UHGV virus genome: UHGV-1341758
DNA length: 14,557 nt
Reading direction: 5' to 3' (one strand)
Source of the DNA: a virus
How positions within the stretch are numbered: the stretch's first letter is position 1; each line of letters starts with the position of its first letter. Shown piece after piece: positions 10,404-14,557 of the stretch. The notes beneath the pieces are model-generated. The model had not been told where the DNA came from and made no database searches. It saw only the letters and a list, made by a program, of their open reading frames with translations. The position numbers and the translations under genes were made by a program.

Positions 10404-10927
10404 GCCGCCCTCCTGACGCCCTGCCCGATCGCCATCAATGCCGCTTTGGATACGGTAGTAAACATCCGTCGAGGACTGATGAACGGTCGCCAAATCAGCA
10501 GCATGGAGCCTTTGCTGTTTCCCTTCTTCTCCAGCCCTGTCGATGGTTCGATAAAATTAATCCGTCCATCAGTGATAATGCGAACTTCGTCGACACTCTC
10601 CAGAGCCTTGCTGAACCATCCGACTGACATATCCTCTGGCACAAGCATAACTACCGTCTGTCGCTGTTGTATGCACTGCTCAGCGGCTTTTTCCACCCAC
10701 GGCCTGATATTGCTGTACGGTGGGTTATTCCAGATTGCACCGTGGCTTACCCACTCAGAATTGAGCGCGTCGTCGGCCTCAGTTAGCCAGTGAGCACACA
10801 GAGCATTTTTGTCGCTCGCTGCCGAATCCAGCCAGAATCCAAACTCAATATCCAGTGCATCAAAAAGCCAAAGCGGCGTTTGCCAGCAGTCCTTGTCGTG
10901 TGCTGGCGTATTTGATTTGATAGTCAT
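10400..10927 (-). CDS. Phage orphan N6-adenine DNA methyltransferase (Dam-like)
   Basis: Contains WNNPPYS (motif IV, (D/N)PP(Y/F), of N6-adenine methyltransferases) and an N-terminal [13 protein letters not shown]...FWLDSAAS segment typical of small phage adenine MTases. ATG at 10927 gives ATGA coupling to NinB (175 aa); the track start at 10987 is an alternative. Confidence 0.85.
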
Positions 10928-11367
10928 GCAGCCCGATATCCCCATCGCGCTTTCCATTCGAGAGCCAGTCGCGCTTCGTCTGACCACTTAACGCCACGTT
11001 CTGTACCGAATGCCTGTATAAGCTCTAATAGCTCCGCAAATTCGCCTACCCGCATCCTGCTGGTTGACTGGCCTATTACCACAAAGCCATTCCCGGCAAG
11101 GTTAGGAACAACGTCCTGCTGCTTTAAGGCTGCGGTAAACACACACTTCCAGCTTTCTGCATCCAGCCAGCGACCATGCCATTCAACCTGACGCGAGACG
11201 TCACCTAAGCAGGCCCATAGCTTTCTGTTTTGGTCTAAGCTGCGGTTGCGTTCCTGAATGGTTACTACGATTGGCTTGGTTGGGTCTGGAAGGATTTGCT
11301 GGATAGCTTGAATGGCGTTCTGCTGATGAATGGGGCTTCTTAGTTCAAACGTTAGTTTCCTCACCAT
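10924..11367 (-). CDS. ninB: NinB (Orf-family recombination mediator)
   Basis: 147-aa ORF matching recalled lambda NinB (..KLTFE(L/I)RSP.HQQNAI.A.QQILPDPTKPIVVTIQERNRSLDQNRKLWACLGDVSRQVEWHGRWLDAESWKC...). Confidence 0.9.
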   Translation of the reverse strand: MVRKLTFELRSPIHQQNAIQAIQQILPDPTKPIVVTIQERNRSLDQNRKLWACLGDVSRQVEWHGRWLDAESWKCVFTAALKQQDVVPNLAGNGFVVIGQSTSRMRVGEFAELLELIQAFGTERGVKWSDEARLALEWKARWGYRAA

Positions 11368-11509
11368 TTACGCTCCTGTAATCGTCAAGTGCAGCTGCAA
11401 TAGTCCCTATCGGGTCATGGTCTTGCCCGATAATCTCATTTACGTTTTCATCTTCTTCCACACCGAAAAAGAATCGCAGGGCTAACATGATTTCTTCGTA
11501 TGCGCTCAT
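11345..11509 (-). CDS. Small acidic hypothetical protein (54 aa), not in the ORF track
   Basis: Manual translation from ATG at 11509: MSAYEEIMLALRFFFGVEEDENVNEIIGQDHDPIGTIAAALDDYRSVNGEETNV. AAGGAG sits about 8 nt upstream; the gene fills the gap between the 110-aa ORF and NinB and overlaps the NinB start by about 23 nt. Confidence 0.4.
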   Translation of the reverse strand: MSAYEEIMLALRFFFGVEEDENVNEIIGQDHDPIGTIAAALDDYRSVNGEETNV

Positions 11510-11511
11510 AC

Positions 11512-11844
11512 TCACTCCTTCACTTTGACTCCAGCAGCGCGGATGTTTTCCTCATAAGCATCCATTGCATCGCCGAAGCCATTGGAATAATCAACAGTAA
11601 ACCCTTTGGTTAATGCTTCTCTGCTGTCGATAAACTTTGGCGCGGTTATTTCAATAGCTGCTCGCGATGCCTGCCACGTTTGCCAGTGGCCTTGAACATC
11701 GTCCATCACGTATTGACCACCAATATTACCGCTGCCAATTTCATGGTGATTTTCAGGGTAACGGATAAGGTCTGAGGATTCGCCTCCACGTCGCAACCAA
11801 CTTTCTTCAAACTGCTTTCTTGATTCGTCCATATTCCTCTCCAT
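11512..11844 (-). CDS. Hypothetical protein (110 aa)
   Basis: ORF in the track (11512-11850, GTG). ATG at 11844-11842 overlaps the stop of the upstream 66-aa gene (TGATG), suggesting the coupled start. No recognisable motifs. Confidence 0.6.
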   Translation of the reverse strand: MERNMDESRKQFEESWLRRGGESSDLIRYPENHHEIGSGNIGGQYVMDDVQGHWQTWQASRAAIEITAPKFIDSREALTKGFTVDYSNGFGDAMDAYEENIRAAGVKVKE

Positions 11845-12044
11845 CACCACTCATTTTTAAGTAAGCGCCACACAGCCTTTCCGCGCGGGAATATCCTGTC
11901 GATATTCTTCTGCATGTTATTTGCCATCACCTTTCGATAGTCATTGCGATAGGGCTTGTTGCGAATAACTTTTGCCATCTTGTAATGACGTCTTAATCGT
12001 TCTTTTGTCCACCCGTCGTAAAGAACAACAATCGTTGTCATCAT
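11844..12044 (-). CDS. Small basic hypothetical protein (66 aa)
   Basis: ORF with GGAGAG Shine-Dalgarno-like sequence just upstream of its ATG; very K/R-rich. Compactly placed between two other small genes. Confidence 0.55.
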   Translation of the reverse strand: MMTTIVVLYDGWTKERLRRHYKMAKVIRNKPYRNDYRKVMANNMQKNIDRIFPRGKAVWRLLKNEW

Positions 12045-12069
12045 TTCTCTCCATTAGTGTGCTGGGGTG

Positions 12070-12258
12070 TTAGGCCTGTACGATTTCACATTTTCTTATG
12101 CGGAGACCGTTCTCATCATCTTGTAAATCAATAGCTCTCTGAGCATCCTCTTTAGTGCGGAATACCGCCTTAACTTCACCGTATTTTTCATGCGCTACTG
12201 AAACAAGCCCATCTTCATCGTCGATGATTGCGTAAAACATATATTCGCTGTTACTCAT
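12070..12258 (-). CDS. Small hypothetical protein (62 aa)
   Basis: ORF preceded by GAGGTGA and located 27 nt downstream of the terminator that follows the helicase gene; no recognisable motifs. Confidence 0.55.
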   Translation of the reverse strand: MSNSEYMFYAIIDDEDGLVSVAHEKYGEVKAVFRTKEDAQRAIDLQDDENGLRIRKCEIVQA

Positions 12259-12284
12259 GCTCTCACCTCACTCTGTTTCTGATG

Positions 12285-12317
12285 CAAATAAAAAGGCCTG
12301 CGATTACCAGCAGGCCT
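12285..12317 (-). terminator. Strong intrinsic terminator downstream of the helicase gene (tR2-equivalent position)
   Basis: Minus strand: AGGCCTGC-TGGTAATC-GCAGGCCT, a perfect 8-bp GC-rich stem with 8-nt loop, followed by TTTTTATTT. Confidence 0.65.
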
Positions 12318-12345
12318 GTTACAAGCTCAGTGATGTAGATGGTCA

Positions 12346-13608
12346 TCAGAATCCTCCTTTCTTCTTGGACTGCGGTTCCTCGCGTTCACGGCGGCGCATT
12401 TCAGCAGACTGTTGGTCTGTGTCATAAATAGCGCCATTTGCCTGAATGCAATACACCGTGCCGGTATTGCCATGACGATTGAGGCGAAGGATTAGTTCGG
12501 TTTCACCAGGAGGAACGCTGTCATCAAAAGCACCTTCCCGATGGATCCCAACCCAATAATCGCAATCCTGTTCAATCTGCCCTGTATCTCGTGAGTCACT
12601 TGGTAATGGGCGTTTATTGGTTCGGCTTTCCAGTGCGCGGTTAAGCTGCGTCAGAAGCACAACAACGCAATCAAGCTCTTTGGCAAGGTTCTTCAGTCCT
12701 TTGGTGATCATGCCGTAAGCAAGGTCGTTACGATCGGCCTTCTCAGCGGTCATTAGTGTCAGGTAATCGACCAGAATCATCCCAACACATCCTTTTTCTC
12801 GCTTGATTCGACGGCTTTCGCTGACGATTTGAGCCAGAGATAATCCCGGCGTGTCGTCGATGTAAAGCAGGTCGATTTCACTCAAGCGATTGGCTGTTTC
12901 GATCGCCCTGTTGAAGTCACCATCGTAATCACCCTGATAGCCGTCATCGGCGTCATTTGTCGCCGGAAGGTAAAAAATATTCGGGTTAACACCAGACTTC
13001 TGCCCTACCAGTTTTTCCAGTATCTGGTCACCGGGCATTTCAAGGCTGAACATCAGAGCGGGCTTTTTCTCATGCACTGCGCAGTTGATTGCCATCTGGC
13101 TGTATAGCGTCGTTTTCCCCATCTTAGGGCGAGCGCCAATGACAAACAGAGAGCCTTTCACCAGACCTTTCGGTGACAGCATCCTGTCCAGAGATGGGAT
13201 CCCTGTGCTCATTCCTCGTTGTTCGCCTGACGGGTCAAATCGCTTCTCAAGGTCGCTAACCCAGTCTTCCATGACCTCACCAAATGAGCGAAGGCCGCGA
13301 CGCGATCCGGTTTTTGCATGGTCTGTCAGTTGCGTGAAAATCGCCTGAATAGCTTCGTACTTCTGCGTTGCAGTCATTCCGTTGCGGGAATAGAGCAATT
13401 CCGTCGCTTCAGTCATGCGGTTGATGGCGTAGCGTTCCATTGCGGTTTCACGAACCTGCATTGCATAGGCAACGATGTTTGCTGCGCTTGGCGTGTTCTT
13501 TGCGATCTCAGCGATATAAGCAAAACCGCCAACAGACGCCGTTAACGATTTGCGCTCCAGTTCATCGAAAAGCGTCAGCCCATCTACTGGCTTTTGCTCC
13601 CGGTGCAT
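12346..13608 (-). CDS. DnaB-family replicative helicase, C-terminal ~420 residues (gene appears frameshifted; see 13614-13778)
   Basis: Walker A GARPKMGKT, Walker B-like ILVDYLTLM, and DnaB-like SVGGFAYIAEIAKNTPSAANI and LTQLNRALESR..RP..SD(L/S)R(E/D)(S/T)G.IEQD.D motifs, compared with recalled E. coli DnaB. Confidence 0.9.
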   Translation of the reverse strand: MHREQKPVDGLTLFDELERKSLTASVGGFAYIAEIAKNTPSAANIVAYAMQVRETAMERYAINRMTEATELLYSRNGMTATQKYEAIQAIFTQLTDHAKTGSRRGLRSFGEVMEDWVSDLEKRFDPSGEQRGMSTGIPSLDRMLSPKGLVKGSLFVIGARPKMGKTTLYSQMAINCAVHEKKPALMFSLEMPGDQILEKLVGQKSGVNPNIFYLPATNDADDGYQGDYDGDFNRAIETANRLSEIDLLYIDDTPGLSLAQIVSESRRIKREKGCVGMILVDYLTLMTAEKADRNDLAYGMITKGLKNLAKELDCVVVLLTQLNRALESRTNKRPLPSDSRDTGQIEQDCDYWVGIHREGAFDDSVPPGETELILRLNRHGNTGTVYCIQANGAIYDTDQQSAEMRRREREEPQSKKKGGF

Positions 13609-13613
13609 TCTGG

Positions 13614-13778
13614 TTATTTCTTCGAAAAGGATTGTGGTCGGCTGTAAAATGAATCAGGCTTCAGCATCGCCAGAACTTTCCGGACGCGCTCACTGCTGTC
13701 ATCATCCAGAAGCAATCCACCAATAACCGCCTGCTCTGCCTCGATGCTATGGGGCGGCGCATAAAAATTATCGGTCAT
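13614..13778 (-). CDS. DnaB-family helicase N-terminal fragment (54 codons), in a different frame from the main helicase ORF
   Basis: Manual translation from ATG at 13778: MTDNFYAPPHSIEAEQAVIGGLLLDDDSSERVRKVLAMLKPDSFYSRPQSFSKK*. PPHSIEAEQ.V.GGL.LD and DDFYTRP match the recalled DnaB N-terminus. Start overlaps the O-like gene stop. Confidence 0.7.
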   Translation of the reverse strand: MTDNFYAPPHSIEAEQAVIGGLLLDDDSSERVRKVLAMLKPDSFYSRPQSFSKK

Positions 13779-14529
13779 CGTGTTCACCCTCACGAACTTT
13801 CAGGTAGGTATTGTCGTTAAGCAGGAAATCAAATCCCTTTTTGTGCCAGACGGTTCCGCGTTGATGGTTTGGGCGTTCTTCGAACATCCATCGGCAATTT
13901 TCGCCTACGTAGCTCAAATAATTTCTCCAGTCCTGCATCGTGAACCCATGCCCGTCAAGCTGGCGGGTTATCACTCCGGCTTTGCGCCAGAACGTTCGGA
14001 TCTGGTTTTTACGCTTGTCATTCAGTGCGCGGATTCTTGGCGCTTCAGGAAGGATTTCGTGGTAAGCATCGACAACATCCTGACAGCTAACGGAAGGTTT
14101 TTTCTTGTCAGACTTTTTGTCTGCTGCGGTACTCTCTAATACGTCAGTATTAGAGATAATATTATTATATTCTTTATCTGTGGTAATTTGCTGGTAATCT
14201 GCTGGTACAGTATTGCTTGCAGGCATTGGTATTGCTGGCTTTGAGGTGGTAATTTGCTGGTAATCTGCTGGTACAAAATTTGACTGATAATCGTCATATT
14301 TCTCTACCGAGAAAACTGAGAATTTACCGTGTGAAACCCAGTCAATCATGCCGAGTTTTTTGAACTTTCTAAGCAGGTACTGAACGCGATCTGGTTTGAG
14401 TCCTGTTTCAAACGCCAGAGAGTTTCTACCGCCAAGTAGCTTCCCTCTGCCTACCAGAATTTCTCCTGCGTCAGTCATTACATACTCAGGCGTATGCTTT
14501 GCTTGAATCGCCACGGGTTTAACAGACAC
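13768..14529 (-). CDS. Replication initiator (lambda O-like / iteron-binding origin protein)
   Basis: 253-aa ORF immediately upstream of the helicase, overlapping its start. Contains in-frame DNA direct repeats (iterons) encoding VPADYQQITT twice, followed by an AT-rich stretch, as in lambda ori inside O. The start codon in the ORF track is GTG at 14529; the first ATG is at 14478. Confidence 0.65.
   Translation of the reverse strand: MSVKPVAIQAKHTPEYVMTDAGEILVGRGKLLGGRNSLAFETGLKPDRVQYLLRKFKKLGMIDWVSHGKFSVFSVEKYDDYQSNFVPADYQQITTSKPAIPMPASNTVPADYQQITTDKEYNNIISNTDVLESTAADKKSDKKKPSVSCQDVVDAYHEILPEAPRIRALNDKRKNQIRTFWRKAGVITRQLDGHGFTMQDWRNYLSYVGENCRWMFEERPNHQRGTVWHKKGFDFLLNDNTYLKVREGEHDDR
14180..14275 (-). 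repeat. Putative phage replication origin iterons inside the O-like gene
   Basis: Perfect 30-bp direct repeat GTGGTAATTTGCTGGTAATCTGCTGGTACA at 14180-14209 and 14246-14275, each made of tandem ~11-bp TGGTAAT(T/C)TGC units, with related GGTATTGCTGGC between. AT-rich block (about 14140-14179) lies on the downstream side. Confidence 0.65.
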
Positions 14530-14557
14530 CTCAGAGTCATTTAAGATGGCTTAAAGA

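Follow-up and report, generated by a model that had tools for sequence, protein, structure and literature searches.

Bacteriophage lambda's nin region, reportedly described by Kroger and Hobom in 1982 as a 'chain of interlinked genes', lies in the early operon between the replication genes and Q, and its equivalents in P22, HK022 and HK97 hold the same position. In all lambdoid phages these genes are 'exceptionally tightly packed' and show ATGA overlaps (PMC8022706). In lambda the region is delayed-early, comes under N antitermination and can be deleted entirely (PMC10695390). Lambda Ren and P22 NinA are also encoded by small genes beside the tR2 terminator of this operon. In both phages ninB comes directly after tR2/ninA, with no gene between them.

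The window analyzed here, a 14,557-nucleotide stretch of viral DNA (UHGV-1341758), has the same operon position, from replication genes to Q, but carries four genes where lambda and P22 have none. The region is 99.8% identical to a prophage of E. coli strain ET665, whose annotation covers O, helicase, NinB, Dam, NinE, NinX and Q. Together with Pfam matches this gives the order O, helicase, tR2/ninA, four ORFs, NinB, Dam, NinE, NinX and, further on, Q. We read the 914-bp interval, with a probability of roughly three in four, as a mosaic insert made of four small accessory genes that are independent of one another; it would belong to the delayed-early rightward (PR-type) operon of a lambda-like prophage of E. 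coli and is placed exactly between tR2/ninA and ninB. Four slots in a row make up the insert: A follows tR2, B immediately precedes the PF26207 gene, C is that gene itself and D lies between it and ninB. The features, in the order in which they are read, are as follows.

12346–13793, minus strand: DnaB-like replicative helicase (Pfam DnaB_C and DnaB), upstream of the terminator
12263–12346, minus strand: NinA-like 27-aa hydrophobic ORF, MTIYITELVTGLLVIAGLFICIRNRVR, found by translation and spanning the terminator
12284–12317, minus strand: tR2-type intrinsic terminator (hairpin 12317–12294, then a T-run), found by terminator scan; upstream boundary of the insert
12070–12258, minus strand: orf62, acidic 62-aa protein, pI 4.5; slot A cassette
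11844–12044, minus strand: orf66, very basic 66-aa protein, pI 10.8, 17 K+R; slot B cassette
11512–11832, minus strand: orf106, acidic protein, Pfam PF26207 (Phage_phiTE_015) and PHROG 343; slot C
11345–11509, minus strand: orf54, acidic 54-aa protein, pI 4.05, PHROG 1603; slot D cassette
10924–11364, minus strand: ninB, recombination mediator (Pfam NinB, E 4e-54; PGAP annotation in ET665); downstream boundary of the insert

The four ORFs of 11345–12258 share the minus strand, and each follows a Shine-Dalgarno site: GAGGTGA for orf62, GGAGAG for orf66, GGAGAGG for orf106 and AAGGAG for orf54. They occupy 876 of the 914 nt (96%). The gaps from orf62 through orf66 and orf106 to orf54 are 25, 11 and 2 nt in that order, and orf54 overlaps ninB by 20–23 nt, its last seven codons covering the ninB start. 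The original prediction, made from the sequence alone, of four tightly packed small genes between a helicase terminator and NinB was correct, including the limits of the ORFs. Three of the four proteins are acidic and orf66, as had been predicted, is strongly basic. The GC content of the block is 0.42–0.47, as compared to about 0.51 in the flanks.

The upstream boundary is sharply defined. The terminator proposed behind the helicase is present as a lambda tR2-type hairpin with an 8-bp GC-rich stem, an 8-nt loop and a T-run. Its sequence is nearly identical to that of tR2/ninA in lambda, P22 and Lahn2, and the matching site is annotated as tR2 in Lahn2 and as a terminator in P22; homology stops just past the T-run. 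The 27-aa ORF that spans it is 84% identical to P22 NinA over 25 aa, and its ATG overlaps the helicase stop codon (TGATG). Because this separate NinA ORF spans tR2, the four genes constitute an insert between tR2/ninA and ninB. The suggestion that they fill the slot of lambda ren or P22 ninA was not borne out: the prophage has its own NinA ORF, lambda ren ends at lambda position 40570, before tR2, whereas the four ORFs lie past the tR2 homologue, and the junction that they occupy is empty in lambda and P22. A short hydrophobic terminator-spanning ORF like MTIYITELVTGLLVIAGLFI, the form taken by P22 NinA, was found only as the separate ORF at 12263–12346, and none of the four has this form. Identity with lambda Ren was likewise rejected, the best blastp match for any of the four having an E value of 3.9 (in a set of 23 proteins).

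All four ORFs are genuine protein-coding genes. PGAP calls each of them in ET665, annotated 'hypothetical protein', and the number of public contigs with the exact protein runs from 20 to at least 1000. Where divergence suffices, pN/pS ranges from 0.06 to 0.16. Loss of the reading frames in related prophages had been named beforehand as the observation that would count against the original prediction; the frames are kept in other prophages and phages, so that objection falls away. The 54-aa ORF with its AAGGAG site, which had been proposed as a gene, is real, with a pN/pS of 0.145. A chance frame in non-coding spacer is most readily imagined for the narrowly distributed orf66, which forms only 5 clusters among 5.8 billion proteins, matched no PHROG or Pfam family and gave no tblastn match in 50,697 phage records. 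Nevertheless, its pN/pS is 0.08 against an 89%-identical E. coli copy (15 synonymous and 5 non-synonymous changes) and 0.16 against an Enterobacter copy, and both of its differences from ET665 are synonymous third-position changes. Its Shine-Dalgarno site is conserved, and 24 of the 25 loci preserve an unbroken frame, the remaining locus holding a 44-codon truncated copy. A spurious ORF is extremely improbable and was rejected on the pN/pS values.

One of the predicted sizes (62, 66, 110 and 54 aa) has to be revised. All four ORFs exist, but the third is more likely to encode 106 aa than 110 aa. The predicted TGATG joint near 11844 is real (11846–11842), and in-frame alternative starts of orf106 lie at 11844 (110 aa) and 11850 (112 aa). 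The shorter form is favored because GGAGAGG stands 5 nt before the ATG at 11832, the same start is used by PGAP, and most homologues begin MDESRK at this point.

The prediction that none of the four contains a recognizable motif was right in that no characterized function emerged; it did not hold at the level of families, since orf106 belongs to PF26207/PHROG 343 and orf54 to PHROG 1603. Searches of the four proteins against Pfam, NCBIfam, PADLOC and PHROGs returned only families of unknown function, and sequence and profile searches of the PDB gave nothing below E 0.02. Across the profile and structure searches, which had been proposed as a check, there was no match to Ren, to named Nin proteins, or to a known toxin, defence protein or solved fold. 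A literature search on PF26207, phiTE_015, DUF7336 and the BTP1 locus tags found nothing.

For orf106, the PF26207 match is precomputed for the identical 106-aa ET665 product and for a 97%-identical cluster representative. The family alignment of orf106 matched phiTE_015 by hhalign at 98.7% probability (E 1.8e-16, 31% identity over 91 columns), and the PHROG 343 HMM matched residues 2–112 of the 112-aa form at E 1.3e-32. Other members are HK022 gp59, to which orf106 is 75% identical, BTP1 gp47, Sf6 gene 48 and Pectobacterium phage phiTE_015, and no function is known for the family. In HK022, BTP1 and Sf6 the gene has the same position after the replication genes. Conserved motifs at the N-terminus (MDESRKQFE), center (WQASRAAIEI) and C-terminus (IRAAGVKVKE) stand around variable segments, and the N-terminal half has a pN/pS of 0.06. 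An AF2 model (pLDDT 73) matched only uncharacterized phage proteins when compared to BFVD with Foldseek, and no fold match was found in the PDB. The gene is full length in 51 and partial in 276 of 5426 complete E. coli genomes; its halves circulate separately in E. coli, and the window copy joins one N-terminal to one C-terminal variable segment. Because PF26207 is both widespread (376 protein clusters, at least 358 viral contigs) and uncharacterized, any phenotype would annotate many phages at once.

The orf54 protein matched positions 1–53 of the 54-position PHROG 1603 HMM at E 1.7e-32. Its family comprises 24 clusters, and 26 of the 5426 complete E. coli genomes carry orf54. BTP1 gp48, with 91% identity to orf54, has the same location immediately before ninB, whose start it too overlaps. 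The orf62 protein belongs to a small phage family (13 representative clusters) with the conserved motif FYAI..H.KY..KAVF. It scored 16.8 bits (E 0.006) against Pfam DUF7336, below the gathering threshold of 25 bits; 6 of 14 family members gave matches, all below threshold, the best with an E value of 0.00067. A distant kinship to DUF7336 is possible, judging by these scores. Weak TTHA0547/Tic22-like fold matches to its AF2 model (pLDDT 80) at E 0.3–0.6 were not relied on. Its exact protein occurs on 180 contigs, and the gene in 3 of the 5426 genomes.

Relatives of orf66 are confined to enterobacterial genomes and viral contigs: 10 of the 5426 complete genomes and 13 IMG/VR contigs carry it. 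An IMG label of 'predicted acetyltransferase' was judged spurious, the protein having only 66 aa and no acetyltransferase domain. PHROG 1785 (BTP1 gp46, Lahn2 ORF71) gave no profile match at E<=1; blastp found 34% identity over 38 aa, with an E value of 0.002 in a tiny database, and hhalign gave 43% probability, for the N-terminal 26 residues only.

The block appears to depend on the surrounding operon for its expression. No promoter-like site was found on either strand of 10800–12700 using a simple sigma-70 consensus, from which weak or unusual promoters may escape, and by consensus patterns no terminator-like site lies on the coding (minus) strand between orf62 and ninB, tR2 being the only one. 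An Rfam scan of 10800–12800 found nothing relevant. Morons of the type described by Hendrix are autonomous inserts, equipped with a promoter and a terminator of their own. The block resembles them in consisting of optional extra genes of slightly lower GC at a lambdoid gene boundary, but differs in that the consensus scan found neither promoter-like nor terminator-like sites belonging to it and in being co-oriented within an early operon. Given this, and its position behind tR2, the block would be transcribed only in lytic development, when an N-type antiterminator carries RNA polymerase past tR2. The four genes would then be translated as a coupled chain. The window shares tight stop/start overlaps, the tR2 terminator and mosaic exchange with the nin region, and by analogy with the rest of that region the four genes may likewise be dispensable cargo. 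The original prediction named host-takeover or exclusion genes as the typical content of such a slot; for the same two reasons, no promoter-like site and a position behind tR2, exclusion from a repressed prophage is disfavored.

The architecture and evolution of the insert are well supported. In other prophages each slot is either vacant or taken up by unrelated alternatives. Only 1 of the 5426 complete E. coli genomes has all four ORFs together. Among the 80 closest PF26207 loci of viruses, the upstream neighbor is an HK022 gp58-like membrane protein in 67, PHROG 1785 in 4 and orf66 in 3, and downstream NinB follows directly in 45, a hydrophobic protein of about 61–63 aa in 22, an FlbD-like protein in 7 and orf54 in 5. 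Lar, DUF3850 and IS elements are also found in slot D or nearby. Many prophages have vacant slots, and in others IS100, IS66 or IS3-type elements break into them, which lends indirect support to dispensability. Short conserved linkers join the slots: the tR2 T-run, the 3' end of the PF26207 gene, in which the following gene has its AAGGAG site, and the initial codons of ninB; a further linker, ATGGAGAGRAAT, is a ribosome-binding cassette ahead of both orf66 and orf106. Unrelated slot-D proteins all end EETNV, EETNI or DEADNLP within the ninB overlap. This is nin-region mosaicism of the textbook kind, with no new system involved, and public annotation already lists the genes as hypothetical proteins.

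The joint between slots B and C is conserved. In 25 of 25 loci a PF26207 gene directly follows orf66, including those in which its product shares no more than 30–40% identity with orf106, the TGATG stop/start is kept in both C-terminal variants of orf66, and orf62, orf66 and PF26207 follow one another in 8 of the 8 contexts read for the exact orf62 of the window. These linkages could reflect functional coupling besides shared recombination joints.

A stronger form of such coupling would have orf66 and the PF26207 protein, possibly with orf62, act as one functional module, be it a basic/acidic complex, a toxin-antitoxin-like pair or an exclusion pair. Besides the constant joint, the opposite charges (pI 10.8 as compared to 4.5–4.9) fit this reading, as does the analogous order in BTP1 of basic gp46, PF26207 gp47, the orf54-like gp48 and NinB. 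However, the dependence runs one way: orf66 precedes PF26207 in only the 3 viral loci mentioned, an unrelated membrane protein taking its place in 67 of the 80, and orf66 occurs without orf62 in 7 of its 10 complete genomes. The obligate co-occurrence expected of a type II toxin-antitoxin pair is therefore lacking, with PF26207 found apart from orf66 in 77 of the 80 loci. Pfam, PADLOC and NCBIfam gave no toxin, antitoxin or defence match for these proteins, the block shows no promoter-like site of its own, and the conserved joint could equally well be a recombination anchor in the 5' end of PF26207. A single module is therefore quite unlikely.

The location between a DnaB-like helicase and NinB raises the question of whether the gene products serve phage DNA replication or recombination as accessory factors, in concert with one of these neighbors, and are not directed at the host. 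In lambdoid phages, genes of the orf54 family always overlap the ninB start. Distant PHROG 1603 members lie between nrdD and nrdG in virulent Klebsiella myophages, as does the orf54 homologue of Klebsiella phage KP13-16, and phiTE_015 shares a gene cluster with the split DNA polymerase genes of phage phiTE. Against this, none of the four resembles any replication or recombination protein or fold, and lambda and P22 function without any of them. The cassettes also accompany unrelated replication modules (DnaB-type, Toprim primase-helicase and P-type loaders) and divergent NinB types (39–99% identity). Such a role is rather improbable, and the insert is better described as independent accessory genes.

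What these accessory genes might act on is suggested, tentatively, by alternative occupants of slot D. In 3 related viral contigs that carry orf66, the Lar restriction-alleviation protein (PF14354, match above threshold) stands between PF26207 and ninB. In phage phiTE, the Lar-like phiTE_014 lies directly downstream of phiTE_015. The slot occupants might accordingly be counter-defence proteins, such as restriction-alleviation factors or DNA mimics, with orf54 and perhaps orf106 inhibiting a host immune system. The strong acidity of orf54 (13 D/E in 54 aa), the hypervariable middles of PF26207 proteins between conserved motifs, and the occurrence of these families in virulent phages are in keeping with this. 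Nevertheless, Lar is absent from slot D in all 80 of the closest PF26207 loci, so the association is a weak lead only. The link of orf54 to Lar is positional only: orf54 lacks cysteines and a zinc-ribbon motif, and its sequence shows no similarity to that of Lar. None of the four has homology to known anti-defence proteins, mosaic recombination also yields hypervariability, and the argument is one of guilt by association. We consider it doubtful that the slot occupants are counter-defence proteins. The broader proposal, that the tR2-ninB junction of lambdoid phages is a counter-defence hot-spot and that at least one of orf54, the PF26207 protein and orf66 inhibits a host immune or nuclease system, is likewise unlikely, but if true the inhibiting gene would define a new anti-defence family.

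For the insert as read here, homologues of orf62, orf106 and orf54 in early small-gene arrays of virulent phages point to a role in the lytic cycle. The four genes seem to constitute neither a four-part machine nor an exclusion system expressed in the lysogen. Guessing from size, charge and context alone, each product would be a small binder that acts by itself and modulates a target in the host, in DNA metabolism or in defence at an early stage of lytic growth. A published accessory-gene screen (PMC12373910) contained no text match for ninB or 'accessory region'. The map, with its four slots, conserved joints and alternative occupants including Lar, provides a short candidate list for phage accessory-gene screens. 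Upstream of the insert, the helicase gene of the window is split by a 4-bp deletion near 13632, as compared to the intact gene of ET665.

The four small ORFs between a DnaB-like helicase and NinB (orf62, orf66, orf106 and orf54) are ordinary, already annotated accessory cargo of the lambdoid nin region. In this part of the window every gene is on the minus strand, in the following order of transcription.

About 14529 down to 13768, minus strand: O-like replication initiator, first in transcription order
13793-12346, minus strand: DnaB-like helicase, downstream of the O-like gene
12346-12263, minus strand: NinA-like 27-aa hydrophobic ORF (MTIYITELVTGLLVIAGLFICIRNRVR), spanning the hairpin, its start overlapping the helicase stop (TGATG)
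12317-12284, minus strand: GC-rich hairpin and T-run, after the helicase
12258-12070, minus strand: orf62, SD GAGGTGA
12043-12054 and 11833-11844, coding strand: ribosome-binding cassette ATGGAGAG(G/A)AAT, before orf66 and orf106, respectively
12044-11844, minus strand: orf66, SD GGAGAG
11832-11512, minus strand: orf106, SD GGAGAGG
11509-11345, minus strand: orf54, SD AAGGAG
11364-10924, minus strand: NinB, then a Dam-type methyltransferase

Gaps along the four-ORF block are 25, 11 and 2 nt, orf54 and ninB share about 20 nt, and 876 of the 914 nt in the interval are coding. Genes of the nin region have been described as 'exceptionally tightly packed', with ATGA overlaps (PMC8022706). The original prediction of four packed genes was confirmed as an observation and was right in part as an interpretation; its coordinates, ORF sizes, TGATG motif and basic orf66 (pI 10.8) were all correct. 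For the third ORF, however, a length of 106 aa is favoured over the predicted 110 aa because the SD lies 5 nt 5' of ATG 11832, PGAP picks this ATG, and most homologues start with MDESRK. The in-frame ATG further upstream, likewise conserved, is the less likely start.

The four ORFs are genes. orf66 differs from an 89%-identical E. coli copy by 15 synonymous and 5 non-synonymous changes (pN/pS 0.08), and its pN/pS against an Enterobacter copy is 0.16. Two differences, both synonymous and in third position, separate it from the copy in E. coli ET665, a strain with a near-identical annotated prophage. The ratio is 0.145 for orf54 against gp48 of phage BTP1 and 0.06 for the N-terminal half of orf106 against gp59 of phage HK022. 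Relatives of orf62 at 40–55% identity fall into 13 representative clusters, virulent Salmonella phages included, and the family conserves F8, H23, Y26, K30, F33 and A39. Chance reading frames are excluded, being contradicted by the substitution pattern.

Just past the helicase stop, the DNA matches lambda tR2, P22 ninA and the ninA/tR2 of phage Lahn2 almost base for base, and homology ends where the T-run does. Lambda and P22 have ninB directly after this point, whereas the window has four ORFs there. The four ORFs are thus an insert at a site that both of these reference phages leave unoccupied. The slot originally proposed, that of lambda ren or P22 ninA, did not hold up: the window has its own NinA ORF (12346-12263), which is 84% identical to P22 NinA; lambda ren lies upstream of tR2, whereas the four ORFs lie downstream of the tR2 homologue; and none of the four resembles Ren. 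The 27-aa NinA homologue was absent from the earlier gene list.

orf106 belongs to PHROG 343 (E 1e-32) and to Pfam family PF26207, named Phage_phiTE_015, and its profile (58 homologues) matched phiTE_015 itself with 98.7% probability. HK022 gp59, BTP1 gp47 and gene 48 of phage Sf6 are also members. The family keeps the motifs MDESRKQFE, W..WQASRAAIEI and IRAAGIKVKE, with the intervening segments freely exchanged; orf106 is full-length in 51 E. coli genomes, and its two halves occur apart in 276. Many PF26207 proteins (P0024, P0050, P0052 and similar) are called with a cysteine-rich N-terminal extension of about 32 aa (MSKCQKCNNTGMCDSGGSTPWGEPIFIECDC). The extension may be a zinc-ribbon-like segment fused to the protein, or start-codon choice may have merged an upstream gene into the call. 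orf54 falls in PHROG 1603, with 91% identity to BTP1 gp48, and orf62 scored 16.8 bits against DUF7336, below the 25-bit cut-off. orf66 forms 5 clusters among 5.8 billion proteins and occurs on 13 IMG/VR contigs, with no match in 50,697 phage records. Pfam, NCBIfam and PADLOC, sequence and profile searches of the PDB, AlphaFold with Foldseek on orf106 and orf62, and Rfam and literature searches gave no functional lead.

Comparison of 25 orf66-bearing loci and 80 loci with close PF26207 relatives gave four successive slots. Slot A, after tR2, holds orf62, a 55-aa PHROG 36993 protein, an HD-domain protein or others. Slot B, just before PF26207, holds orf66 in the window; of the 80 PF26207 loci, 67 have an HK022 gp58-like membrane protein there, 4 a PHROG 1785 basic protein and 3 orf66. 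Slot C is PF26207. Slot D, before ninB, holds orf54 in the window and elsewhere a hydrophobic protein of about 61–63 aa, an FlbD-like protein (HK022 gp60), a Lar-family restriction-alleviation protein or a DUF3850/ASCH protein, or is empty. Short conserved sequences form the joints: the tR2 T-run; the ribosome-binding cassette ATGGAGAGRAAT, repeated 5' of orf66 and orf106, which looks like a reusable inter-cassette linker; the PF26207 3' end, coding for ...KVKE* and holding the AAGGAG site of the next gene; and the ninB 5' end, from which unrelated slot-D proteins take a common C-terminal tail, EETNV, EETNI or DEADNLP. This architecture is classic lambdoid mosaicism. IS100, IS66 and IS3-type elements lie in or next to the slots in three genomes (L006:3451-5252, L007:5311-7688, L017:3296-4443), and IS insertions in the small-gene block truncate orf62 or PF26207, consistent with a block that is dispensable in prophages. 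On one viral contig, a 68-aa ORF 5' of orf66 (L029:2269-2475, MTSRELFEEW...WRGWQGSR) appears to be a second PF26207 N-terminal module in truncated form.

The most serious rival is that orf66 and PF26207 act together. The PF26207 gene directly follows orf66 in 25/25 loci (L004-L007, L014-L021, L023-L035), even with a partner 30–40% identical to orf106, and their TGATG joint is conserved. However, the dependence is one-way, with orf66 in so few of the 80 PF26207 loci, and a recombination anchor inside the PF26207 5' end explains the linkage equally; joint action is quite unlikely. A counter-defence role is suggested by Lar-family proteins (PF14354, above threshold) in slot D, directly 3' of PF26207, in three lambdoid viral contigs (L033:953-1207, L034:2985-3185, L035:2982-3233), and by the virulent Pectobacterium phage phiTE, where the Lar-family phiTE_014 (L022:8969-9370; PF14354, above threshold) lies directly 3' of phiTE_015. 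Lar is nevertheless missing from slot D in all 80 closest PF26207 loci, and we regard this role as unlikely. Only position points to a replication or recombination accessory role, which seems distinctly improbable.

The accessory block runs in the same direction as the early rightward operon, downstream of the tR2 homologue. Neither of its strands has a sigma-70-like promoter match, and no terminator belonging to the block lies on the coding strand. In lambda, N-modified polymerase reads genes past cro; the nin region belongs to the delayed-early class and can be deleted (PMC10695390). The four genes would be transcribed in lytic development only, translated as a coupled chain, and silent in a repressed lysogen; such silence would disfavour a prophage-expressed exclusion function. 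Three of the four ORFs have homologues in virulent phages, within arrays of small early genes, which fits a lytic-phase role. The proteins are small, strongly charged and single-domain, three acidic (orf54 pI 4.05) and one very basic. As a guess, their most likely role is to bind some host or DNA-metabolism target and modulate it.

The region is 99.7–99.8% identical to the lambdoid prophage of ET665, where PGAP calls all four ORFs 'hypothetical protein', flanked by DNA replication protein O, DnaB-like helicase, NinB, N6-adenine methyltransferase, NinE, NinX, RusA and Q. Exact proteins occur on 20 (orf106), 69 (orf66), 180 (orf62) and at least 1000 (orf54) public contigs, all of them unnamed save for an IMG label on orf66. 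That JGI/IMG name, 'predicted acetyltransferase' for a cluster of 60–66 aa, is implausible, the domain being undetectable. Among 5426 complete E. coli genomes, orf62 was found in 3, orf66 in 10 and orf54 in 26, and the complete set in ET665 only. In practical terms, the four genes are useful as a defined set of candidates when accessory genes are screened.

Set against the ET665 prophage, to which it is otherwise 99.7% identical, the window is missing 4 bp (TTTG/TTGT) near 13632 (site 13609-13640). The loss breaks the helicase into an N-terminal ORF of 59 aa and a remainder of 420 aa, and reflects either a replication-defective prophage or an error in sequencing or assembly. Identity to ET665 ends at 14504 (window 14504-14557). 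The O-like frame runs into an in-frame TAA at 14551-14553, giving an initiator of at most about 253 aa from GTG 14529 compared to 299 aa in ET665. Either a mosaic joint or a truncation within the N-terminal part of O may explain this. Inside the O-like gene, a low-GC stretch (14180-14280, GC 0.40) holds iteron-like direct repeats (GGTAATTTGCTGGTAATCTGCTGGTAC), two 35-nt copies with 94% identity and one shifted copy, which encode the repeated peptide VPADYQQITT. This stretch is probably the replication origin.
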